DNA of 64,000 bases from Sulfolobales archaeon (GCA_038867615.1 JAWBYA010000003.1:64001-128000); one strand, 5' to 3'; shown: positions 11,385 through 29,625, counted from the stretch's first letter. Translations and numbers: made by a program. Notes: generated from the letters alone by a model not told the origin.

Positions 11385-11433
11385 AAACAAGACACTCTAA
11401 TTAACACTATGCGCTATATTGTCGTGTGGGAAG

Positions 11434-12159
11434 ATGGTCACACGAATATCTACAGGAGTGCATAGCCTAGACTCAATGCTTGAGGGAGGAGTGCCTGAGG
11501 GGTTCTTCATAGCAATAGTCGGAGAGCCCGGTACTGGTAAGACCGTGCTTAGCCTCCACTTCATCCACCAAGGCATAGTTGATGGTGATAAGTGTATCTA
11601 TGTAACGACAGAGGAGGATCGAGAATCCCTTCTAGACCAGGTAGAGAGATTCGGCTGGGACTGGGAACCTTTTATTGGTAAGAGGTTAATAATAATTGAT
11701 GCTCTAAAGGGCCAGGAGGATCCATGGTCTATCCAGGATATGGATATAGAGCTGCTAATAAACAAGGTGATCGAGGCTAAGAAAGCCCTTGGATATGGGA
11801 GGTCAAGGCTAGTCATAGACTCTATCTCAGCCTTCTGGCTCGAAAAACCAGCAATGGCTAGGAAATACAGCTATCTGGTCAAAAGAGTTCTGGGTAAATG
11901 GGGTTTCACAACATACCTAGTGTCACAATACGCTGTTACAACAATGTTCGCTTTTGGATGGGGTGTAGAGCATATAGCCGATGGTGTTATCAGGTTTAGG
12001 AGGAAGATCTCTGGAGGGGTGTTAAAGAGATACCTAATGATAGAGAAAATGAGGAACACAAGACATGATAAGAGAATATATGAAATAGACATAACTGATA
12101 GGGGGTTGGTGATACTAAACCCAGCTGACCTTGATATAGAGCATGTGACATCTATATAG
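11434..12159 (+). CDS. KaiC-domain RecA-superfamily ATPase (aRadC-like)
   Basis: ISTGVHSLDSML.GG, Walker A GEPGTGKT, LVIDS, EHIADGVI, IEKMR. Confidence 0.9.
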   Translation: MVTRISTGVHSLDSMLEGGVPEGFFIAIVGEPGTGKTVLSLHFIHQGIVDGDKCIYVTTEEDRESLLDQVERFGWDWEPFIGKRLIIIDALKGQEDPWSIQDMDIELLINKVIEAKKALGYGRSRLVIDSISAFWLEKPAMARKYSYLVKRVLGKWGFTTYLVSQYAVTTMFAFGWGVEHIADGVIRFRRKISGGVLKRYLMIEKMRNTRHDKRIYEIDITDRGLVILNPADLDIEHVTSI

Positions 12160-12481
12160 ATAAGAAAGGATTCGTGTATCAAGAATCACAACCAAAGATC
12201 TTGTAAAAACAGCTCAAGCCGACCCCATATTAGATGAGAGATCCGTGTCGCCAAGCCCTGACAACAATCCACGGACCATGGGGATAAAGATCTCTGCGAG
12301 CTGGGTAGAAGATCTAGCTATGGAAAAACAACACAACAAATATCCAGAGACATATAGGTGAAGCAAGCGAAGATATGATCGCTGTGAAAACCCCTGAAGA
12401 GAACCAATCCACCCAACTACTCCTGCGTTCTTAAGCAGATAAAGCGTAATGCTAAATATACCTCTCCACAATATCTCAATA

Positions 12482-13231
12482 ATGATGAGCCTCTTGGCAA
12501 AAATCATTGTTGACGAGCGTGAGAGATCCTCAGGGATACCGCAATTACTGGCTAGGTTAGGTGACCATATAGTATACAAGATCCTTGATGTTGGTGACTA
12601 TATAGTTGGTGAGAGCATCGCGATCGAGAGGAAAAGAGTACCGGATTTTATAAGGAGTATTTTTGATGGAAGAATATTTGACCAGGTTGGAAGACTCCTT
12701 GATGTATATGATAAGGTAGTATTGCTTGTCCAAGGATCGCCAGGCGAGGTGAAAATGACCACAGATAGGTGGAGTTCTTTTTATGGAACAATAGCCAGAA
12801 TGATCCTTGAGGATGGTGTGAGCATCGTCTATACACATGACATCGAAGACACAGCCTACCTAATCCACTCCCTAGCCCAGAAATCCCAAAGCCCTGGAAT
12901 TGGGGGTGGACGCCCATTGATCCATAAGAAGCCGAAGCTGGGAACCGTGGATGAGTGGCAAGTATACATAGTCCAGAGCTTACCCTATATAGGGCCGAAG
13001 CTGGCTAGAAAGTTGCTAGAGAGATTCGGAAGCGTACTCTCTGTCTTCAACGCAAGCGCCCTAGAACTCAGCAGGGTCGAAGGGATCTCAGAGTGGAAGG
13101 CACAGGAGATAGTAAGGATCCTGAGATCGCCATATAATAAGGGTTTGTTTAGGAGTAAAGAGAGGGATCTTGGTTCAGAGCCTCATGGATCAGACAACAT
13201 ATCGCCAGATCATGGTAACGCTAACCACTAG
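12482..13231 (+). CDS. xpf: Crenarchaeal XPF (ERCC4) structure-specific endonuclease
   Basis: IIVDERE, GDY...IERK..DF..S..DGR..DQ nuclease motif and tandem HhH (LPYIGPKLA, VEGIS). Confidence 0.93.
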   Translation: MMSLLAKIIVDERERSSGIPQLLARLGDHIVYKILDVGDYIVGESIAIERKRVPDFIRSIFDGRIFDQVGRLLDVYDKVVLLVQGSPGEVKMTTDRWSSFYGTIARMILEDGVSIVYTHDIEDTAYLIHSLAQKSQSPGIGGGRPLIHKKPKLGTVDEWQVYIVQSLPYIGPKLARKLLERFGSVLSVFNASALELSRVEGISEWKAQEIVRILRSPYNKGLFRSKERDLGSEPHGSDNISPDHGNANH

Positions 13232-13530
13232 GGTATGCACTACTATGGGAGCTTCATTCAGCTAATTCATGCTCCACTTCTAGATCCTTTTTACGTATTG
13301 TTAGAGAGCCTTCAATGCGAAATGGTAAAGGCTTTGTATTTATTTTGTACGTCATAGAACAAGTAATTAGGAGTCTCACACCGTATCTTTATGCTACACA
13401 GAAGTGGTTTCACAATTTTATCTACCTATTATAGTAATGGAGCGCCTTATGCCGGAATAGAACGGCTTAGAGGCTGCATGGACGCTTAGCCTATTAAGTG
13501 CATAGCTGTGGGAAAAACTAGAAGCCTGGT

Positions 13531-14733
13531 TTATCTAGCAACTATAGCTAACACCCATATTAATGCTATTCTTACAAAGGCTATCCACTGTATAGGGCTT
13601 TCTCTGAACCATGGCCCCCTGCTCTCAACACCGATCATACTTGTTATAACTCCTTCATGGAACCAGAGAACCATTATCATGACATTAAGTATATCCTGGA
13701 TAAGCAACAGATATTTCAACCTATTGTTAAGCAATAGATAGAGAGGTGCCAGAAATATATTCATCTGTGGTGAGTAGATATATGAGAAACTTATAGAGAG
13801 TGCAACCGACATTAGTGGTGTGCGCATAGACATCGCTCCGGGTTCTTGGATATACCTGTTATAAGACACGATCGTATATATAAATGGTGCAGAGAGAGTG
13901 AGAACGATAGAGAGGGTCCTGAGACTCTGATTATATATATCATCTGTTAAGAGATTATAGAAGCAGTTTTCACAATACCACCTCGAGTGATAGCTAAGGA
14001 AGTGGAAGAAACCGGGGGGATATACGAGTAGTAATGCTAAGAACGGGAGTGCTGCTACTGAGAAGCCGAGAAGAGCGAAGAGCATGGCTCTCCCGATCCT
14101 GCTGGCTAGGATCGTGATGAATATAGAGAACAACGCATATATGGGTATAACCTTAACAGACGCTCCCAAACCCAACGCGATGGATGAGCCATAAATCTTG
14201 TTTTTAGTGTAGAGAAAAATACCCAAGATCATTAGAAAGGCCGCGATTATATCCCAGTTATAAAATAAATAGTAAACAATAGAGGGCGATGCTATAGAGA
14301 GTATAGAAAGAATCCTTGGCGTCCTCTTCTCTTTCGAGATCCTATATATGATATAGACATATGCTATATAGAAAAAAATATTTATAGCAAAAAGACTTCT
14401 CACCATGGATAAGAAAGGATCATAACCATGTGTTGAGAGATAAAGAGCGATCTTAGAGGCAGCTAGCCAGAGAACAGCTATTATTGGCGTGTATTCAAAC
14501 TCATAGTCAACATATGGATAGCCTGATAAGACGCTGTCAGGGGATCTATGATACAGCGCTAGGTAGTCAGTATATTCTCCAAGGAATAAGGGATCGTGGA
14601 TCACAATACCAATGAGTATAACTATTATCGCTATCATCGCGTACTGGTAGTGTTCACCACGAACTCTGCGCAAGATACCCCCACACAACATAGTCACAGA
14701 AAATATCTCTATGAGGCAAAAAACATATATCAT
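13531..14733 (-). CDS. Multi-pass membrane GT-C glycosyltransferase (GT87-like)
   Basis: About 10-11 hydrophobic segments; PYVDYEFEYTP, NWDII, GASVKVIP and YSPQ motifs. Confidence 0.7.
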   Translation of the reverse strand: MIYVFCLIEIFSVTMLCGGILRRVRGEHYQYAMIAIIVILIGIVIHDPLFLGEYTDYLALYHRSPDSVLSGYPYVDYEFEYTPIIAVLWLAASKIALYLSTHGYDPFLSMVRSLFAINIFFYIAYVYIIYRISKEKRTPRILSILSIASPSIVYYLFYNWDIIAAFLMILGIFLYTKNKIYGSSIALGLGASVKVIPIYALFSIFITILASRIGRAMLFALLGFSVAALPFLALLLVYPPGFFHFLSYHSRWYCENCFYNLLTDDIYNQSLRTLSIVLTLSAPFIYTIVSYNRYIQEPGAMSMRTPLMSVALSISFSYIYSPQMNIFLAPLYLLLNNRLKYLLLIQDILNVMIMVLWFHEGVITSMIGVESRGPWFRESPIQWIAFVRIALIWVLAIVAR

Positions 14734-14906
14734 GCATTGTTGTTTTCATAGTACACATAGCATACGGCTAGCAGGCGGGTGAATAGACATATACCCATGC
14801 AGATCTAACCTGGTATCGACCTCCTTAGAATTGCTCACCACCTTTCCGCACTGAACAACTGAGTAAGCTCTCCTCAAGTGGGTGTGTTCAGATCCATGGT
14901 TTGAAT

Positions 14907-14937
14907 ATTTTCGCCCAACCCAGTGGGCTTTTATATA
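14907..14937 (+). promoter_or_regulatory. Promoter of the pilin operon: TATA box (TTTATATA 14930-14937) with upstream ATTTTC (ANTTTC-like) element at 14907-14912
   Basis: The TATA box ends 23 nt before the pilin ATG at 14961; the hexamer lies 17 nt upstream of the TATA box. Confidence 0.55.
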
Positions 14938-14960: not shown

Positions 14961-15407
14961 ATGTTGAGGAAAAGAGTATTGAAAGGTTTGAGCGAGCTGG
15001 TGGTTATAATGATAGCGGTCGCCATAGCCGTACCAGTCATGTTCATACTACAATCATGGCTGGTAGGACAGATGGGGAGGATGCCAGAGCTAGATCCCGT
15101 GACAGCTACCTATGTCTCTAGAAGCGTTACCACAGACTCGCTCCTAGTAACACTAACCGTGAGCAATAATGGGAACGAGCCTGTGAGCGTTTCTAGCATT
15201 ACAGTGGTATACACCACTACCGAGAGTGGTGTAAGTACTACTTCAGGCAATCTGCTGGGTATAAGTCTTCCTCAGACTATTAATCCCAGATCATCGATAA
15301 CTATCCCTCTAACAATAAACAACGCGGCTAAGGTTAACGAGGTTATAGTCACAGTTACAATACCGAGCTCTAACATTGTGAAGACTATAAGAGCAGCAGG
15401 GATCTAG
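14961..15407 (+). CDS. Archaeal type IV pilin with class III signal peptide
   Basis: MLRKRVLKG|LSELVVIMIAVAIAVPVMF: basic leader, KG cleavage site and hydrophobic N-helix, followed by a Ser/Thr-rich beta domain. Confidence 0.88.
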   Translation: MLRKRVLKGLSELVVIMIAVAIAVPVMFILQSWLVGQMGRMPELDPVTATYVSRSVTTDSLLVTLTVSNNGNEPVSVSSITVVYTTTESGVSTTSGNLLGISLPQTINPRSSITIPLTINNAAKVNEVIVTVTIPSSNIVKTIRAAGI

Positions 15408-15410
15408 CGG

Positions 15411-16889
15411 GTGTTCCTCGTGCATTTACTGAAACTAGATAAGCTTTTTTCTAGAAAAATAATATTTGGCAGAGTTAATACGGGTTCTGTGTATTTTCCT
15501 AGCTATGGGGATTTTGATCTTAAGGAGTATGTGTTGCACGGAGATTCTAATGATTATGATCCATTGCTGAGCAACGCTGTGGTCAAAGAGGTGGAGGATG
15601 TTATTATAGAATATAGTGTTGGGCCGTACAGGATTCTGATTGTATCCTCTGATGGGGAGTATCTATATCTAGCGGATCTGGTTCCAAGGCCTTCCAGGGA
15701 TCTTGTGGGCATTATAGATAACCTATCAAGAGATCTTTTCAGATTCGCTCCTGAGGATAGGGATCTTGATGACTACTACATAGCCGAGGTTCTGAGGAAT
15801 GTGTACAGAATCCCTGAGGATTATGTTAATATGGCTACATATCTAGTGAAGGAGAGGCTTAAGTACGGCAGGATCCAGGTTCTCCTCGACGATCCATATA
15901 TAGAGGATATAAGCATCAGCGGCCCGGGTGCTGTTTGGGTTAGGCACAGGATAGTTGTTGAGAAGGATCCCTTGGTGGATATGATCAGAACAAACATCGT
16001 CCTAGATGCTAGGGAAGTGCTATCGCTTCAAAAATACATAGCCACAAGATCTAGAACATATATATCTAGGTCAAACCCTGTAGTCGATGTACAGCTCCCA
16101 AGAGAGGACGGTGGGCACAGGGTACATCTAGTAGATCCAACAATAGCTGGTAACAGACCAGAGATAACTATTAGAAAGAGGTTGGAGGAGAAGATAAGCA
16201 TAGAGTGGCTCATTGAGAAAGGATCTATTAGGAGCGAGGTTGCCGAGTATCTAAGACAGATAGTACTAAGCAGGGGCTCTATAGTTATAGCCGGCCCCCC
16301 GTCTAGTGGAAAGACAACCCTCCTAAGAGCTCTTCTCAACAGCTACGTACCCCCCAGCTGGAAAGTAGTTATAATAGAAGATACCCCCGAGATCGAGATC
16401 CCCGAGAACAGCTCGTGGGTTAGATATACAACATACGAACTGGGAGCGCTCCACATAGACCAGTTCTTCCTAGCCAAAGCAGCCCTCAGATCTTCTGCTA
16501 ACAGGCTCATAGTGATCGGAGAAACCAGGGGAGCAGAAGCCCAGGTTCTGGCACAAGCCCTAAACATGGGTATGGGGGCTCTCACAACATTCCACGGCGG
16601 GTCTTCAGAGGAGGTTATAACAAGGCTTATGTCGCCTCCTATAAACATGTCTAAACACCAGATCGGCAGCATATGGACTATAGTTATCATGGGTATTGGG
16701 TGTGTGAACAGTAAGGGGGTGGGTAGGTGTGTGGAGAGGGTGGATGAGATCCTTATGGATGACGATATAGATATACATACAGTCTATTCTGTGGAGGAGA
16801 ACAGCCCAGGGATTATGGAGAGAAGCATTAGATTGAGGAGAGCCAGCAGGACAAGGAATTCTGGGAACATCTTGGTCAAAACCGGCTAG
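15411..16889 (+). CDS. Type IV pilus / type II-IV secretion assembly ATPase (CpaF/FlaI/UpsE-like)
   Basis: LLDDPYIEDISI, ITIRK, Walker A GPPSSGKTT, IEDTPEI, ALR...IGETRG.EA, TTFHG. Confidence 0.93.
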   Translation: MFLVHLLKLDKLFSRKIIFGRVNTGSVYFPSYGDFDLKEYVLHGDSNDYDPLLSNAVVKEVEDVIIEYSVGPYRILIVSSDGEYLYLADLVPRPSRDLVGIIDNLSRDLFRFAPEDRDLDDYYIAEVLRNVYRIPEDYVNMATYLVKERLKYGRIQVLLDDPYIEDISISGPGAVWVRHRIVVEKDPLVDMIRTNIVLDAREVLSLQKYIATRSRTYISRSNPVVDVQLPREDGGHRVHLVDPTIAGNRPEITIRKRLEEKISIEWLIEKGSIRSEVAEYLRQIVLSRGSIVIAGPPSSGKTTLLRALLNSYVPPSWKVVIIEDTPEIEIPENSSWVRYTTYELGALHIDQFFLAKAALRSSANRLIVIGETRGAEAQVLAQALNMGMGALTTFHGGSSEEVITRLMSPPINMSKHQIGSIWTIVIMGIGCVNSKGVGRCVERVDEILMDDDIDIHTVYSVEENSPGIMERSIRLRRASRTRNSGNILVKTG

Positions 16890-16903
16890 GGTTCGGTACC
16901 ACC

Positions 16904-18358
16904 ATGGATATCCTCTCACGAGCTGTAAGGAAATACTCAGAACTATTAGCGATCTCGGTATCGAGCTACAGGGATTATCTATCTCTACAGAGAGAGCTGA
17001 TAACAGCCATTATAGGTGTAATGCTCTCCCTATCACTCGCAACGATCACCAACCTCTGGTTAGGAGCCATACCGCATAACATGGAATTATCGATAGCACT
17101 CGCAATTTCGGGGTCTATTTTATCACTCCACAAGATCCTAGCCAGGGTCTCGAGATCCTTGGAGAAGGCAAAAGGATTATCAGAGGAGCTACCATATTTG
17201 GTTTTCATGGCCTCAGCAATAGCTAGGACAGGGCTCGAGCTTGTAGAAGCGCTTCATTTTATCTCAACCAGCGAGGCTGGTGTGTTTAGATATTTTAAAA
17301 GCCTCTCAAAAAGGCTTATCAATGCATCCAAATACATAGGCTTTGAGGAGGCCTTAGACAGGCTCGCAGGGATTCCTAGGGGTGTTAAGAAGACTCTGAT
17401 AACATATCTCTCAAGCATAAGTTTAGGAACAGGTATAGAGACACTGAACGCGCTTGGGTTAGAGATGATCAGAGAGGCTTCTAGACGGGCATCGAGATCT
17501 ATAGACCTAGCAGCCCAGGCTGGCCTGGTGATAACGATGGTACTCACAACAATACCGATCCTCGTCCTAGGGATCTCATCGATCCTCGGCGATCATGTAG
17601 CGCTAAGCGTAGGCATCATGGTTAGTTTAGGCACACCAGTAGCTGTTCTATTACTGCCCCAAACACCCCTACCACTCAGGCTCATAATAAGTAGGGGTAA
17701 GACGCTGTATGTTTCTTTACTAAGCCTGCTCTCCATAGGCCTTATAGTATTGGCATATGTATCAATACACCTGCTAGCCTTATCAATCATCCAGATAAAT
17801 ATAATGAAGAACATTATTATCATATTATCGATCATCATGATCCTCGTGGGTATCCCCTGGGCGGTGATCTTTGCAAACTACCTAGCCGGTTTCGGGAGGG
17901 CTAGGGATATCTTGTTTTCTATAAGCAGTTATGCCAAGGCATATAGAACACTAGATGGTCTCGACCTAGATAAGGAGGCACAGAGAGTAGGTTCATACGC
18001 ACCATGGATATTACATTATATCATATTCTCTCTGGTCTTTTTCAGAGAAAAGGGTGGGGTCGAGCCCATAGTCATCACAAGGTTTTCAGAAGAGATCATG
18101 GATGTAATGGCAAAGAACACCAACAGGATCGCGGGATCTTTGCTATCGCTTGCAGCAACCCTAGCACAGCCAGTAATGCTTGCACAGATAATCCCAATGA
18201 TGGGCTCAACCGCACATAGCCTTGGCACGATCGTCATGCTCCTATCATCAGCAACGGTATCATCGCTAATAGCATCAAAGATCTTCTTCGGAAGTGCGAG
18301 GAACACGATTATAATGGGTATGTGTTTCTTGCTACTCTATACACTTCTCCTAAGGTGA
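16904..18358 (+). CDS. TadC/FlaJ/UpsF-like pilus membrane platform protein
   Basis: Follows the assembly ATPase; about 9-10 TM segments; T2SSF-like segment EELPYLVFMASAIARTGLELVEAL...GFEEAL. Confidence 0.72.
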   Translation: MDILSRAVRKYSELLAISVSSYRDYLSLQRELITAIIGVMLSLSLATITNLWLGAIPHNMELSIALAISGSILSLHKILARVSRSLEKAKGLSEELPYLVFMASAIARTGLELVEALHFISTSEAGVFRYFKSLSKRLINASKYIGFEEALDRLAGIPRGVKKTLITYLSSISLGTGIETLNALGLEMIREASRRASRSIDLAAQAGLVITMVLTTIPILVLGISSILGDHVALSVGIMVSLGTPVAVLLLPQTPLPLRLIISRGKTLYVSLLSLLSIGLIVLAYVSIHLLALSIIQINIMKNIIIILSIIMILVGIPWAVIFANYLAGFGRARDILFSISSYAKAYRTLDGLDLDKEAQRVGSYAPWILHYIIFSLVFFREKGGVEPIVITRFSEEIMDVMAKNTNRIAGSLLSLAATLAQPVMLAQIIPMMGSTAHSLGTIVMLLSSATVSSLIASKIFFGSARNTIIMGMCFLLLYTLLLR

Positions 18359-18363
18359 TCCTC

Positions 18364-20754
18364 ATGAGCCTTTCAATAAAGATCCCATACAAGGTTGAGG
18401 ATCTATTCACGGTAGAATTGCCAGAGCATCTGCTAAGTCTGAAACCGCGTCTCATTCAATCAAGGATCAGCCCTGACACTGTCTATGTTGAAACAGAGAT
18501 CGGGGACGTGCTTGTGAGACCATTGATAGGTTTGAAAAACAATATCAACAGACCCTGGGTGTATCACGATGCCTCGAGGGTTTGTTTTAATAATGCGTGT
18601 AAAGATCTTGGCAAGATCTTTAAAGCAGCTCCACTAAGCGATAACACTGCTATAGTAATTAACGAGGGGAAAAGCTACTTAGCAGAGTTATCTGAAGACG
18701 GTATAAGAACCAGACATGTTGATGTAAAAGAGATCTTAGGATCAGTACGATACATAGATAGATCTGTTATTCTGATTCGAGAGAAAGGGTTTAGGAAGAG
18801 AGTGTTAGCAATAGACCACGGGTTTCTATATGCCGTGACAAGCTTCTGCATGGAGCGAAGAGAAGGATATGCTGTAGTAGCCTTCGAGACGGGTGGTTAT
18901 ACAAGAATATACTTTGGCGCCGAGCACGGCGGGTATATGATATACGACACAAACAGCCCGCCAGTAGCATGTACCATGGGGTATAGGGTAGCTACTATAG
19001 CGCTAAGGAACCGGGGTTCTGTATATATCGGTAAGGGACTATACCTAGAAACACCCCTAAGATCCGTAGGAACAGCGTGGATCCCTGAGGATAGGGTTCT
19101 TATTCTATACGATCAGAAGGGTGGGTGGCTATTAGAGAGCGATCTTAGAAGCCTCAAACCCATAGCCAGGCTGCCTGGCAGACCAACATATTTGGGCAGG
19201 CTTGGGGATTCAGATTCACATGTATTGACGGTTAACGGAGAGTTGGTGGTTATCAAAGGCTCCCTCATTACAAAGCCGGAGATCCGTTTAGACAGTTATA
19301 AATATGTGTCCATCAATAACAATGGGTTAGTGATAGATTCAGGAGAAACCCTCGCAATAAGATCCATAGAGGGGAGGGAGATCTGGAGTGTTAAGAAAGA
19401 TCCAGATACTCTATGCAGTGGATATGGAGACAAAATTGTATGTATTAAGGGGAACATGATCAGCGTAATAGAACCCGGTGAGGGAGAAGTGGTGATAGAG
19501 AGAAGAGCCGGTGAAATACCGGGGGTTATCATAAGCGGGGGTGGAAAAATACCAGGTATATCGGTCAGCGGGGATATAGATGTAATCAACATAACAAGAG
19601 TAGATGGAGACATAGAGATAACCATGGCGCCCAGGGTGCTTGGAAAAACATCGAGACCGTATATAGAGTTGGAGGACCTCATAACAAAGCACAGGGCTGA
19701 ATTGGAGGTCGTGGCGGAACCCCCGAAAGTAACTATAGAGCATGCTGGGATAGTGGTTTCGAGAACAGGTTTGCATATCGAGTGCGGCTCTCCCGGATAT
19801 GCCGAGGTTGTGTTAAGACTTAGCGGGAATAGATTCCACGATTTATATAGATATGTTGTGAGGATAACATCGATGGGAAGAGTTATAGGGCTAACAACAT
19901 TCCATCTAGGCTCTAACAATAGAGCTGAGGAGAAGATAGAACTGAGGATATGCCTAGAAGAGGCACCGATCGATGGAGATGCATGGCTAGAGATAACAGC
20001 TATAAAGAGAGATCTTGAGGGTCTCGAGGGCGAAGCTTTCTACAGAGCACCCTTGGTAGTTGAAACCAAGGAGCCTGTTGTCACCATATCTCTAGAGCAC
20101 TATAGCGATAAAAGCGAGATAACAGTAAAGGTAGAGAGATCCCGCGGGGTTGATGGAAACATATATGTTGATATTAAATGCACCAACACGTCATTCGAAA
20201 AAACAGAGAGAGGCAGTGGGGTTGTTAGGATCACCATAGGGGGGTGTGAGGTTCCAGCAAGAATCGTTACAGCTATCGAGGATCAAGGTTTCAAATGGAT
20301 CACTTCTAGAGAGATCCATATACCAGAACTAGTGCAATGCGCGGAGGAATATAACGATATAGCCGGTATAGCCGACGTGATGTGTACCAAGGGTGGGTTT
20401 TACAAACATATACCCCCGATCTCCCATAAAGATCTCTCACCCATAAAGGAGATAAAGGTTATAAATCTCCCAGGCAGAGGGAGCCAGGTCTTAATTATTG
20501 CTGATAGGAATGCATCATATATGGTAACAACCCTGAGAACCGGCTATGTGATTGGACAAGGCCGGCTATTCACCGGGATTAACATAGTGAACCTGGGGGT
20601 TGCAGCCCTGCTAGAGCCCTTAAGACTGTCGATCTTCAGTGGGGCGGCTTATAGAGAATATTTGATAGAGCCGGAAAACATAGCTGAGATGATCTCAACA
20701 GCCCTGAGAACATCTTATAAGCTACTAGAAATTATGGGCGGGCTAGGATTATAG
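18364..20754 (+). CDS. Large beta-rich hypothetical protein (796 aa) within the pilus operon
   Basis: ATG 18364 follows GGTGA. No signal peptide or TM segment is visible, and the sequence has a repeated short-strand pattern. Confidence 0.8.
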   Translation: MSLSIKIPYKVEDLFTVELPEHLLSLKPRLIQSRISPDTVYVETEIGDVLVRPLIGLKNNINRPWVYHDASRVCFNNACKDLGKIFKAAPLSDNTAIVINEGKSYLAELSEDGIRTRHVDVKEILGSVRYIDRSVILIREKGFRKRVLAIDHGFLYAVTSFCMERREGYAVVAFETGGYTRIYFGAEHGGYMIYDTNSPPVACTMGYRVATIALRNRGSVYIGKGLYLETPLRSVGTAWIPEDRVLILYDQKGGWLLESDLRSLKPIARLPGRPTYLGRLGDSDSHVLTVNGELVVIKGSLITKPEIRLDSYKYVSINNNGLVIDSGETLAIRSIEGREIWSVKKDPDTLCSGYGDKIVCIKGNMISVIEPGEGEVVIERRAGEIPGVIISGGGKIPGISVSGDIDVINITRVDGDIEITMAPRVLGKTSRPYIELEDLITKHRAELEVVAEPPKVTIEHAGIVVSRTGLHIECGSPGYAEVVLRLSGNRFHDLYRYVVRITSMGRVIGLTTFHLGSNNRAEEKIELRICLEEAPIDGDAWLEITAIKRDLEGLEGEAFYRAPLVVETKEPVVTISLEHYSDKSEITVKVERSRGVDGNIYVDIKCTNTSFEKTERGSGVVRITIGGCEVPARIVTAIEDQGFKWITSREIHIPELVQCAEEYNDIAGIADVMCTKGGFYKHIPPISHKDLSPIKEIKVINLPGRGSQVLIIADRNASYMVTTLRTGYVIGQGRLFTGINIVNLGVAALLEPLRLSIFSGAAYREYLIEPENIAEMISTALRTSYKLLEIMGGLGL

Positions 20755-21341
20755 ATATAAAGAGGCTTCTCAGGATACGGGAACATGTTGCCAAAATACT
20801 GTTTGGATCAGATGATCTCAGGCTAGTCGATGGAAGAATTGTTAGCTGTGATAGTAAGGGTTGCATTGCAAGAGGGTTCCTCATAGTTAGGGATTTTACA
20901 GAAACACTGGACGATCTAGAGGGTAAGGATGTACAGAGAATACTTAACTCATACGTTAAAACCCTATCTCACAACGCACCAATAGATCTGAGGATTATTA
21001 TCTCACCGATCAAGCCAGAGGAGGTGATGAGCAAAATAGACAAGGCTATACAGGTTAAACAAATCATGCTCGAAGCAGACCCAACCAACGAGAAGCTGAG
21101 AACCGAGGTTGAGAGACTGAAGAGAATTAAGAAAAAGATACTCAGCGGAGAGACCCCCTTCTCGATAAACATGGTCTTCAGCGTTATCTCACAAGGATCT
21201 ACGGAGAATGAAGCCATAGAAAGGCTCTCACATAAGATCTCGATATTAAGGGAGGAGTTGAGAAGTATAGGAATATATACCGAGGATCTTAGAGGACTTG
21301 GGGCAATAGCCGCTCTTAATAGGTTTTTTCGTGGGGAGTAA
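20751..21341 (+). CDS. Hypothetical protein resembling the N-terminal domain of VirB4-like ATPases; probable non-canonical start
   Basis: The frame is open from 20721 (after TAA 20718-20720) but has no ATG/GTG/TTG until 21024. The upstream part reads as protein (IDIKRLLRIREHVAKILFG...GFLIVRD...DLRIIISPIKPEE). The start is uncertain. Confidence 0.6.
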   Translation: MDIKRLLRIREHVAKILFGSDDLRLVDGRIVSCDSKGCIARGFLIVRDFTETLDDLEGKDVQRILNSYVKTLSHNAPIDLRIIISPIKPEEVMSKIDKAIQVKQIMLEADPTNEKLRTEVERLKRIKKKILSGETPFSINMVFSVISQGSTENEAIERLSHKISILREELRSIGIYTEDLRGLGAIAALNRFFRGE

Positions 21342-22506
21342 TAGCCCCATACTGAGGATCCTCGATAGGATTCTTTGGAACAAACTCACAATAACCTCAT
21401 CGCAGGCCATATATCTCTCTCCATTTATAAAAACCAGTCTGCATTCTAGGGGTAGAAGTGCTAGCGGGATACCGCTTGGAAGAGTCATAAACAGTGGTAG
21501 GAATATCTTCTGGAACCCGAACATCTCAATGAGCCCCCACGTGGTTGTGGTTGGACCAACAGGGTCTGGGAAAACAGAGACGCTCCTGAGCATAGCTACC
21601 AAGATGAACTCGCTCTACTCACTCACCGTGCTGATGATCGATGTTAAGGGAGATATTAGAAGTAGGCTGGAGAGGAGGGGCTATTTCTTCAATCTCATAG
21701 ATGTACCTAGAGATCCTCTGGGATCTTTATATCCATACTATATAGACACTGTTGGCAGGGCTGGACAGGTATTTGAATCCATAGTCTCCTCCTACGAGGT
21801 ACATGACGTCAGGATTCAAGCCTCTCTCTATAAGGCTATAAAGAAAGCATATGAAACAACACCACTCCCAACATGGCAGCATATTATGGCAGGGCTTGCT
21901 GACGAAGAAAACCCCGAGAGCATAATGATCTCAAGGATGTTGGATGAGATAGCGTTTCTCGACGGTGGACCGCATAATATAGGGCACTACTCACTCAGAG
22001 AAGGTATTATTAATGTGATCTCCCTAGCCGGGATCTCGAAGGAGAGGGAAGAGATGCTAAGCTACGCGATGAACATGGTGTTCCACGATATGTTGAACTA
22101 CATGTCTTCAAGAAGCATAGACCCAAAGACCATAAGGGGGGTTCTCGTAATAGATGAGGCATGGGTGCTGAGCAAACATGGGAAGAGCTCTAACAGAGTG
22201 CTAAACTTGATAAAGCTCAGCAGAGGCTATGGTCTCTCAGTCCTTCTAGCCACCCAGAGTTTCAGGGATTTTGGTGATAGCTGGGATAGGATTCTAGAAA
22301 ACACTGGAGTCCTCATAGTGCTTAATACTCCGAGCAAGAGATTCTGGATCGATGCATCCAATTTCCTGAAAATAAGCAGAGAAGCCATAGAAGATCTCAT
22401 GGTCGTACTTGGTAAAGGAGACGCGCTCATAAGAGTCCTCCCGGATCCAAGGCCTATCCCAGTATCCCTCGAAAACGATGTTGAGGAAGCAAGAGAAGGG
22501 TTCTAA
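21331..22506 (+). CDS. HerA/VirB4/FtsK-superfamily P-loop ATPase
   Basis: IPLGR...W, PHVVVVGPTGSGKT (Walker A), IDVKGD, LVIDEAW (Walker B), SRGYGLSVLLATQS (Arg finger and ATQ), LGKGDAL. Confidence 0.9.
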   Translation: MGSNSPILRILDRILWNKLTITSSQAIYLSPFIKTSLHSRGRSASGIPLGRVINSGRNIFWNPNISMSPHVVVVGPTGSGKTETLLSIATKMNSLYSLTVLMIDVKGDIRSRLERRGYFFNLIDVPRDPLGSLYPYYIDTVGRAGQVFESIVSSYEVHDVRIQASLYKAIKKAYETTPLPTWQHIMAGLADEENPESIMISRMLDEIAFLDGGPHNIGHYSLREGIINVISLAGISKEREEMLSYAMNMVFHDMLNYMSSRSIDPKTIRGVLVIDEAWVLSKHGKSSNRVLNLIKLSRGYGLSVLLATQSFRDFGDSWDRILENTGVLIVLNTPSKRFWIDASNFLKISREAIEDLMVVLGKGDALIRVLPDPRPIPVSLENDVEEAREGF

Positions 22507-28359: not shown

Positions 28360-28462
<103 letters not shown>

Positions 28463-29237: not shown

Positions 29238-29330
29238 ACGATCACCGTACTATTTAGATAAATCGCTAGTAATAACAATATCATCGTAGATCAAGCTATT
29301 TATTATCGCCTTGTAATATTAAATAGTGGT

Positions 29331-29417
29331 GCCGCCGTAGCTCAGCTGGGAGAGCGACCGGCTGAAGAATGCTCGGCAGAGACCGGTAGGTCCGGGGTTC
29401 AAATCCCCGCGGCGGCA
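29331..29417 (+). tRNA. tRNA-Phe(GAA) with a 14-nt intron at 37/38 (29368-29381)
   Basis: GCCGCCG acceptor, ACCGG-CT GAA G-[AATGCTCGGCAGAG]-A-CCGGT, GGTTCAAATCC. Confidence 0.94.
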
Positions 29418-29625
29418 TCTATTGTGAATAGTAATCAGCAACCCCGTAATAAGCAGAAAAACAAGCCATAATCGGTTGCTCCTGGTATTATGAGGGTTTA
29501 TGAGAACCGATACTAGATCCGCAGATATGCGAAAACCTAAGCTGAAGAAATATAATCAGAACGATGTACCCTGCTCACGATAAGGGCTACAACTACATAG
29601 AGTCCTGTTTATCGATACCCATGGA

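Follow-up and report, generated by a model that had tools for sequence, protein, structure and literature searches.

A type IV pilus operon that carries a CedB-like ATPase was analyzed in a stretch of 64,000 nucleotides (nt) from Sulfolobales archaeon GCA_038867615.1 (JAWBYA010000003.1:64001-128000). This whole stretch is called the window, and positions are counted from its first nucleotide. The host, which has not been cultivated, comes from a hot spring and belongs to the GTDB order Sulfolobales but not to the family Sulfolobaceae. Its genome (2.22 Mb, 94% complete) has as nearest named relatives 'Desulfurococcaceae archaeon AG1' and a 'Sulfolobales archaeon' metagenome-assembled genome. 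Families within the order were labeled f1, f3, f4, f5, f10, and f11, where f1 is the family of the source genome (G000). Six co-oriented open reading frames (ORFs), g1 to g6, lie on the plus strand between 14961 and 22506, with gaps of 3, 14, and 5 nt followed by two overlaps. An earlier sequence-only reading had taken them for six tightly packed genes. The tight, co-oriented arrangement stood and the gene number did not. Because g5 and g6 match consecutive parts of the CedB model, they are read as one cedB homologue and the operon as five genes. The features are listed below.

14907..14936, plus strand: putative promoter, consisting of ATTTTC (14907-14912), a 16-nt spacer with the palindrome CCCAGTGGG, and the TATA-like TTTTATAT (14929-14936).
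14961..15407, plus strand: g1, type IV pilin with a class III signal peptide, 148 amino acids (aa) from ATG; TTG at 14901 is an alternative start, and the start is uncertain.
15411..16889, plus strand: g2, pilus assembly ATPase of FlaI/CpaF/TadA type, 492 aa, 3 nt after g1.
16904..18358, plus strand: g3, TadC/T2SSF-like membrane platform, 484 aa, 14 nt after g2.
18364..20754, plus strand: g4, all-beta accessory protein, 796 aa from ATG, 5 nt after g3, or 810 aa from GTG at 18322.
20751..21341, plus strand: g5, 0-frame part of cedB, CedB N-terminal domain; frame open from 20721, stop TAA at 21339-21341, overlapping the g4 stop.
21324..21332, plus strand: proposed +1 frameshift site TTT TTT CGT, with a slip of P-site tRNA-Phe from UUU to UUC and the rare CGU in the A site.
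21331..22506, plus strand: g6, +1-frame part of cedB, VirB4/HerA-type ATPase domain, overlapping g5 by 11 nt.

The Ced system of crenarchaea imports DNA, and CedB is its VirB4-like motor. g5 matched the NCBIfam CedB model NF041017 at model positions 74-204 (E 5.8e-15, 54.9 bits), and g6 matched the same model at positions 224-588 of 590 (E 3e-75, 254 bits). The separate alpha/beta protein of roughly 196 aa proposed earlier is the N-terminal part of CedB. CedB was the best-scoring NCBIfam family, and VirB4, TrbE, and HerA scored far lower. g6 also matched Pfam AAA_10, HerA_C, and DUF87, and its PDB sequence matches were HerA-type helicases and coupling proteins. The motifs GPTGSGKT, VIDEAW, and SRGYG..ATQ were all present in its translation. 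With its Walker A, Walker B, and arginine-finger region, g6 is predicted to form a VirB4/HerA-FtsK-type P-loop ATPase domain. The HerA/VirB4/FtsK-motif ATPase that had been recognized from the sequence was thus confirmed and could be narrowed to a CedB-like protein. In a CedB tree of 38 rows, rooted for drawing only, the genes of f1 and of genome G146 were sister to four Sulfolobaceae sequences (support 87/79). Outside f1, the same CedB match lay within one open frame of 570-637 aa. The first ~73 positions of the CedB model were absent here. They presumably correspond to the membrane anchor, and no membrane segment was found in this CedB.

The sequence-only reading had set beforehand that the proposal should be dropped if the HerA/VirB4 gene and the pilus genes were unlinked in related genomes. 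A sample of 256 genomes of the order, each at least 80% complete, was searched for g2 orthologues and CedB, with the results listed below. Sulfolobaceae genomes in the sample were recognized by UpsA-model scores above the cut-off.

g2 orthologue at E<=1e-60: 67 genomes of 256.
CedB at E<=1e-20: 98 genomes of 256.
Both genes: 41 genomes of 256.
Both genes, on one contig and strand, 4-6 kb apart: 37 genomes (10 of f1, 1 of f4, 26 of f3).
Both genes, on different contigs near contig ends: 3 genomes.
Both genes, unlinked: 1 genome.

Linkage was therefore present in 37/41 genomes, and it is conserved across three families outside Sulfolobaceae. The condition for dropping the proposal, missing linkage in relatives, thus did not hold. 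The order pilin, ATPase, platform, g4, cedB was found in 10/12 f1 relatives, and the other two loci were cut by contig ends. This recurrence of the order in f1 is far beyond chance. Three f3/f4 loci had the same five-gene layout, with a protein of ~800 aa and a single-frame CedB.

The identities of the pilus genes agreed with what had been read from the sequence. g1 has one N-terminal hydrophobic helix behind RKRVLKG/LSELVV (the slash marks the predicted cleavage point), and the motif [KR]xG/[LVIM]S[ED]L with its hydrophobic helix was kept in the f1, f3, and f4 orthologues. Cleavage of g1 by a prepilin peptidase is predicted, and the genome has two matches above cut-off to the prepilin peptidase family PF01478. 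The match of g1 to the NCBIfam UpsA model was weak (E 1.5e-3, 18.7 bits, cut-off 130). g2 matched PF00437 T2SSE (E 1.2e-20, 74 bits, cut-off 24.9), and its NCBIfam matches, FlaI (177.7 bits) and BasE (109 bits), were both under cut-off. g2 and its orthologues formed a clade (11 rows, 100/100) apart from the UpsE clade (100/100) in the ATPase tree, so the placement suggested earlier put the pilus ATPase in a clade of its own. The g2 orthologues of genomes lacking CedB formed a derived subclade within it.

g3 is a multi-pass membrane protein with multiple hydrophobic segments and gave no family match in Pfam or NCBIfam. Other leads point to a TadC-like platform. PF00482 T2SSF was carried by 28/30 of the named ESM-Atlas clusters nearest to g3 (best score 0.95), which is a lead and not an alignment, and the place of the platform gene after the ATPase gene is conserved in relatives. 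g4 proved beta-rich as claimed. Its AlphaFold2 model was all-beta (predicted local distance difference test score, pLDDT, 88.0; predicted template modeling score, pTM, 0.63). Its N-terminal half resembles a propeller; the model also has beta-sandwich domains and ends in a helix. Neither a signal peptide nor a clear membrane segment was found in g4, and a Foldseek search against the PDB returned generic propeller and immunoglobulin (Ig) matches only (TM <=0.23). The g4 family is tiny, with 24 relatives at E<=1e-3 among 1.84 billion representatives. In f3/f4, an ORF of ~800 aa occupies the position of g4. Relatives of g4 adjoin the same pilus genes in genomes without CedB too; therefore, g4 was counted as a pilus accessory protein. 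Modeling of g4 and the CedB N-domain as a complex gave a score of 0.01, which is evidence neither way. In G170-G178 (genus g62, family f3), e.g., at G171:C10:81713-82699, the pilus ATPase orthologue lies in frames of 791-860 aa, compared with 440-500 aa elsewhere. These long frames suggest a fusion with another domain or a neighboring gene.

We consider it fairly probable that the locus is a five-gene operon joining a type IV pilus and a recoded cedB for cell contact and DNA import. The pilin, the assembly ATPase, the TadC-like platform, and the lineage-specific 796-aa beta-propeller/Ig protein would build the type IV pilus. If the genes are co-transcribed, the contact-forming pilus and the import motor would appear together. 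One operon would then do what Sulfolobus does with separate ups and ced loci.

The search for other Ced components gave a mixed picture. A CedD-like ATPase (NF053655, 272 bits, cut-off 600) is encoded ~16 kb upstream of the operon, outside the window, and it had full-length matches in 11/11 f1 genomes, G000 included. Across the order, the ATPase domain that it shares with paralogues was matched in 165/256 genomes, so the count is uninformative outside f1. Directly before the CedD-like gene lies the gene for a protein of 225 aa whose sole domain match is a TFIIB zinc ribbon (PF08271, 36.6 bits); the pair lies at G000:C3:61032-63230. By analogy, a TFB3-like regulator paired with the second Ced ATPase is possible. 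The CedA search was aimed at a multi-pass protein with small two-helix ORFs on its flanks. The membrane clusters that came up as candidates turned out to be DMT transporters and the like, and a stricter two-flank version returned spurious small ORFs only. One f3 genome has a DUF1614 eight-helix membrane protein 61 nt after cedB (L021:5244-5963, minus strand), and no counterpart of it was found in the source genome. For the single module of contact and DNA translocation that had been proposed, the link to CedB was conserved, but the module could not be called complete, with the CedD-like gene at a distance and no CedA found.

Several results weigh against a pilus-coupled importer. No CedA, CedA1, or CedA2 channel or pilin was found in the operon or the genome by this crude search, which used no family model; a CedA-like channel had not been seen nearby in the sequence-only reading either. 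The CedB scores were under the NF041017 equivalog cut-off of 700 bits. All 43 Sulfolobaceae genomes (43/43) had CedB and none had a g2 orthologue, so CedB of Sulfolobaceae occurs without this pilus clade. Twelve genomes of f10/f11 had an orthologous pilus locus and no CedB match anywhere; therefore, the pilus has a CedB-independent role. With ~30% identity to UpsE, g2 was at least as distant from it as from other paralogues, and no homology between g4 and UpsX was found (tblastn; g4 family against five ups loci).

Some of these results would also fit a CedB-like ATPase that was recruited as the pilus's own second motor or accessory, e.g., to assemble or retract it or to export the large beta protein, with no DNA moved. 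The ATPase is encoded inside the pilus operon in three families, it lacks a membrane segment, its score is under the CedB cut-off, and the crude search gave no CedA-type channel. However, the CedB model was matched nearly full length, the protein grouped with Sulfolobaceae CedB, and the CedD-like partner ATPase was kept throughout f1. The same pilus clade also occurs without CedB in f10/f11, so the ATPase is not a core pilus part. We therefore regard such a pilus accessory as rather unlikely and continue with the reading of a pilus joined to an import motor.

The two parts of cedB are separated by a +1 change of frame. TTTTTTCG was invariant and in frame in 12/12 f1 loci and in G146. In all 12 f1 loci, the upstream frame passes TTT TTT CGN and reaches a stop two or three codons on, and the downstream frame is always +1 and already open before that stop. 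The f5 loci (11/11) shift +1 at the homologous site, where AAT TTT is followed by CGN (8), UGA (2), or UGU (1) and the T-runs have four or five bases. The offset was thus +1 with UUU in the P site in 24/24 split loci (12 of f1, G146, and 11 of f5) from two lineages, and the A-site codon was CGN in 21, the stop UGA in 2, and UGU in 1. Skipping of the C after the second TTT gave a product that aligned to the full-length f3/f4 CedB and lacked a single residue (FF/GF against FFRGF). When TTTC was read as one step, the window gave a continuous product that matched the CedB model in a single stretch, positions 74-417. CGN codons made up 6.8% of the 30,077 Arg codons in the genome, and TTTTTT accounted for 23/565 Phe-Phe dicodons.

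Both cedB frames were open and conserved down to 44% protein identity in 12/12 f1 genomes, and the downstream frame was conserved from the slip site on, before any start codon. The slip site is thus conserved across species and the downstream frame appears to be under purifying selection. All 24 split loci also combine +1-offset overlapping frames, a P-site codon whose tRNA could re-pair (from UUU to UUC or UUU), and a presumably slow A-site codon. The slip-site DNA was identical in contigs of four runs from four studies, and the frame change was present in single-contig genomes too; these two findings excluded an assembly error. One tRNA-Phe(GAA) was found in the genome with ARAGORN. The gene for this proposed slipping tRNA is 90 nt long and lies within the window at 29330-29419 (plus strand). 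A 100-nt tRNA at 28363-28462 (minus strand) had an Rfam match and was missed by ARAGORN; it probably contains an intron.

The start of cedB is unusual as well. The open frame of g5 has no ATG, GTG, or TTG before its codon 101, and no canonical start was found before 21024. An ATA at 20751 aligns with the ATG (MNIKKILG...) of g5 orthologues in other species of the genus. This ATA is found in the source genome and its two nearest relatives, where it overlaps the g4 stop TAG (20752-20754) as ATAG, with AGGA just upstream. From this alignment, ATA at 20751 is likely the start of cedB here. The arrangement suggests initiation at a near-cognate start or by termination-reinitiation or coupling to g4.

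A programmed +1 ribosomal frameshift is very probably the best reading for f1 as a whole. Normal decoding would stop three codons after TTT TTT CGT and give only the N-terminal domain of ~195 aa. A +1 slip of tRNA-Phe on UUU, favored by the rare CGU, would give the full-length ATPase of ~580 aa. Together, the non-canonical start and the frameshift would keep CedB low and in fixed proportion to the pilus proteins. Two results weigh against this reading. The slip site of the window coincides with a GTG (21331), which would allow independent initiation in this species taken by itself. TTT TTT CGN is also in frame in 7/9 single-frame cedB genes of f3/f4 (L019, L020, L021, L078, L079, L081, and L083), where a +1 slip would lead to a stop after 7-16 codons. 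Since f3/f4 keep the motif without the shift, its conservation is not explained by restoration of the frame.

The GTG raises the question of whether g5 and g6 are a true split gene, made separately from canonical or non-canonical starts or by termination-reinitiation and forming a two-chain CedB with no frameshift. In the window and the two genomes nearest to it, the downstream frame has this GTG at its head, with 11-14 nt left to the upstream stop, and split ATPases that assemble are common. Over f1, the first canonical start of the downstream frame varied in position between -23 and +106 nt, counted from the upstream stop. In the other f1 genomes, however, the first ATG, GTG, or TTG came 13-106 nt past that stop, and in several genomes it stood behind family-conserved residues that align to full-length CedB. 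The f5 loci likewise have their first start behind conserved residues. Against a split gene, too, stand the +1 offset in 24/24 loci and the upstream frame, which always runs through UUU into a rare codon or a stop. A split gene is quite unlikely on these grounds.

Very improbable, too, is slippage of RNA polymerase on T6, by which one U would be dropped and some transcripts would carry an uninterrupted cedB. Slippage on homopolymer runs is known in bacteria, and the T6 run does not vary within f1 and G146 and is retained in 7/9 f3/f4 genes. The f5 loci, however, shift at the homologous site with four or five T, a length not known to allow slippage, and the A-site codon (CGN, UGA, or UGU) is under evident selection, which is relevant to the ribosome and not to the polymerase. 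Ribosomal frameshifting remains our preferred reading of the site.

The operon is flanked by housekeeping genes, as scanning of the flanking ORFs indicated: polyprenyl synthetase, KaiC-like ATPase, XPF nuclease, and GT87-like membrane glycosyltransferase upstream, and GNAT acetyltransferase, malic enzyme, and ArgRS downstream. The base composition is flat around the operon. No relaxase or archaellum accessory gene was found among the flanking ORFs scanned, as had been noted before. The operon is chromosomal, and nothing pointed to a mobile element. A remnant of an integrated conjugative element or plasmid with a decaying VirB4-like gene is barely credible: VirB4-family ATPases are typical of conjugative elements and cedB is interrupted, but the housekeeping flanks have conserved synteny, neither relaxase nor integrase was among the neighbors scanned, and two frames that are both open and conserved contradict decay.

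The in-frame motif in f3/f4 allows another view of the slip site, which looks older than the cedB split as judged from its distribution. The site may make a product of the N-domain only in both arrangements. In f3/f4, standard decoding would yield full-length CedB and a slip would yield the N-domain alone. A small indel would have inverted this in f1, G146, and f5, where the full-length motor would come from the slip. In both cases, the site would fix how much free N-domain is made relative to the motor. The shifted genes fell into two separate clades of the CedB tree, f1 with G146 next to Sulfolobaceae and f5 apart; the inversion would have happened twice or been reverted. We tentatively propose, as a possibility about which we are doubtful, an ancient two-way +1 site at the boundary of N-domain and ATPase, in an ancestral one-transcript machine of pilus and cedB that preceded the separate Ups and Ced. 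It would be the first conserved cellular +1 case of archaea in the literature compared.

The promoter region was compared among relatives. The distance from the TATA-like box to the ATG at 14961 is 24 nt. The layout A[CT]TTTC, 16 nt, and a TATA-like box was found upstream of the pilin gene in 10/11 f1 loci, and the remaining locus had GTTTTC. It was not seen in three f3/f4 loci. The strict pattern had only 8 occurrences in the genome, and a genome-wide search for a regulon sharing it gave these 8 sites and no coherent set. A promoter function is inferred for 14907..14936. The palindrome CCCAGTGGG occupies 14913-14928, directly before the TATA-like box. Relatives have CCCTGAGGG there, with the symmetry kept, and a regulator may bind at this place. 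A(N)TTTC is the ultraviolet (UV)-promoter element of the ups genes of S. acidocaldarius, at -44..-39, according to the available text of PMC5817253. The same hexamer sequence occurs here with another spacing, 16 nt from the TATA box and not directly before the B recognition element (BRE).

Further genes of the window were noted. The KaiC-like ATPase, XPF (ERCC4) nuclease, and GT87-like glycosyltransferase genes lie at 11419-14733, just upstream of the operon, and their synteny was kept only within the genus. The Sulfolobus ups operon reportedly adjoins a helicase, an endonuclease, and a glycosyltransferase, with which this trio may be compared. An archaeal signal recognition particle RNA is also encoded within the window and marks it as archaeal DNA.

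As a recoding event, the cedB site resembles the +1 frameshifting of prfB and Ty1: the P-site tRNA would re-pair one base forward, and the A site is occupied by CGN, as in Ty1, or, in two genomes, by UGA, as in prfB. As in programmed frameshifts, a short 0-frame product would compete with a long trans-frame product, and the site is conserved across species. No Shine-Dalgarno-like stimulator was seen by eye upstream of the slip site. According to the available text of a 2021 review, the -1 shift of fucA1 is the only shown archaeal frameshift, and a +1 shift was merely suggested in a haloarchaeal virus (PMC8211752). The fucA1 shift of Saccharolobus solfataricus is -1, whereas the proposed shift in cedB is +1. 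If true, the cedB frameshift would add a conserved +1 recoding to a domain with one shown case, a -1 shift, as far as that text goes (PMC8211752). It also calls for caution in annotation, in that pairs of 'hypothetical protein plus AAA ATPase' in these genomes would be one gene. If the two-way site is true, the operon would be a one-transcript machine of contact and import, possibly ancestral to the separate Ups and Ced loci of Sulfolobus.

Among other Ced-type systems, the Ced of Aeropyrum pernix and the Ted of Pyrobaculum likewise belong to hyperthermophilic Thermoproteota and use a VirB4-family motor that is part of a domesticated apparatus for DNA transfer. Their motor is paired with VirB2-like conjugative pilins and a VirB6-like channel, neither of which was found here. 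A. pernix is described without Ups, and the available part of this source mentions no link of its Ced to a type IV pilus operon (PMC9905601 for all three points, in its available part). The archaeal type IV filament subclades 4A, 4H, 4I, and 4J (Makarova et al. 2016; MacSyFinder models of 2026) share the core of pilin, ATPase, and TadC-like platform and add lineage-specific extras. The main text of PMC4858521 contains no VirB4 and uses HerA only as a superfamily name, and the available main text of PMC13705601 names no CedB, VirB4, or HerA in type IV filament loci; the neighborhood figures in the supplements of the former and the supplements of the latter may show more. The accessible parts of the literature compared mention no type IV pilus locus that contains a VirB4, HerA, or CedB gene, and the gene-neighborhood figures of the Ced paper of 2016, Makarova 2016, Recalde 2025, and the type IV filament paper of 2026 may already depict the linkage.

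The closest comparison is with Ups and Ced of Sulfolobaceae (upsXEFAB; cedA1-cedA-cedA2, cedB, and cedD), which, by the available text, likewise comprise a type IV pilus and a VirB4-like CedB (PMC11823120). A CedD-like ATPase, a chromosomal layout, and A(N)TTTC upstream of the pilus promoter are shared as well, within what the same text and that of PMC5817253 cover. The pilus differs from Ups in that g2 falls outside the UpsE clade, g1 scores 18.7 against 130 bits for UpsA, and no UpsX relative was found. CedB differs from that of Sulfolobaceae by the missing membrane anchor and the interruption by a +1 shift. As far as the literature at hand covers it, ups genes are exclusive to Sulfolobales, and Ced occurs also in Desulfurococcales and Acidilobales; some species encode Ced and lack Ups. 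The pilus-cedB operon is a candidate for cell contact in crenarchaea of that kind. Pilus genes and cedB stand in one operon here and in separate loci in Sulfolobus. The operon would tie cell contact and DNA import together genetically. On its predicted gene products, the locus is a single-operon variant of the Ups/Ced theme, combined with a candidate recoding event.

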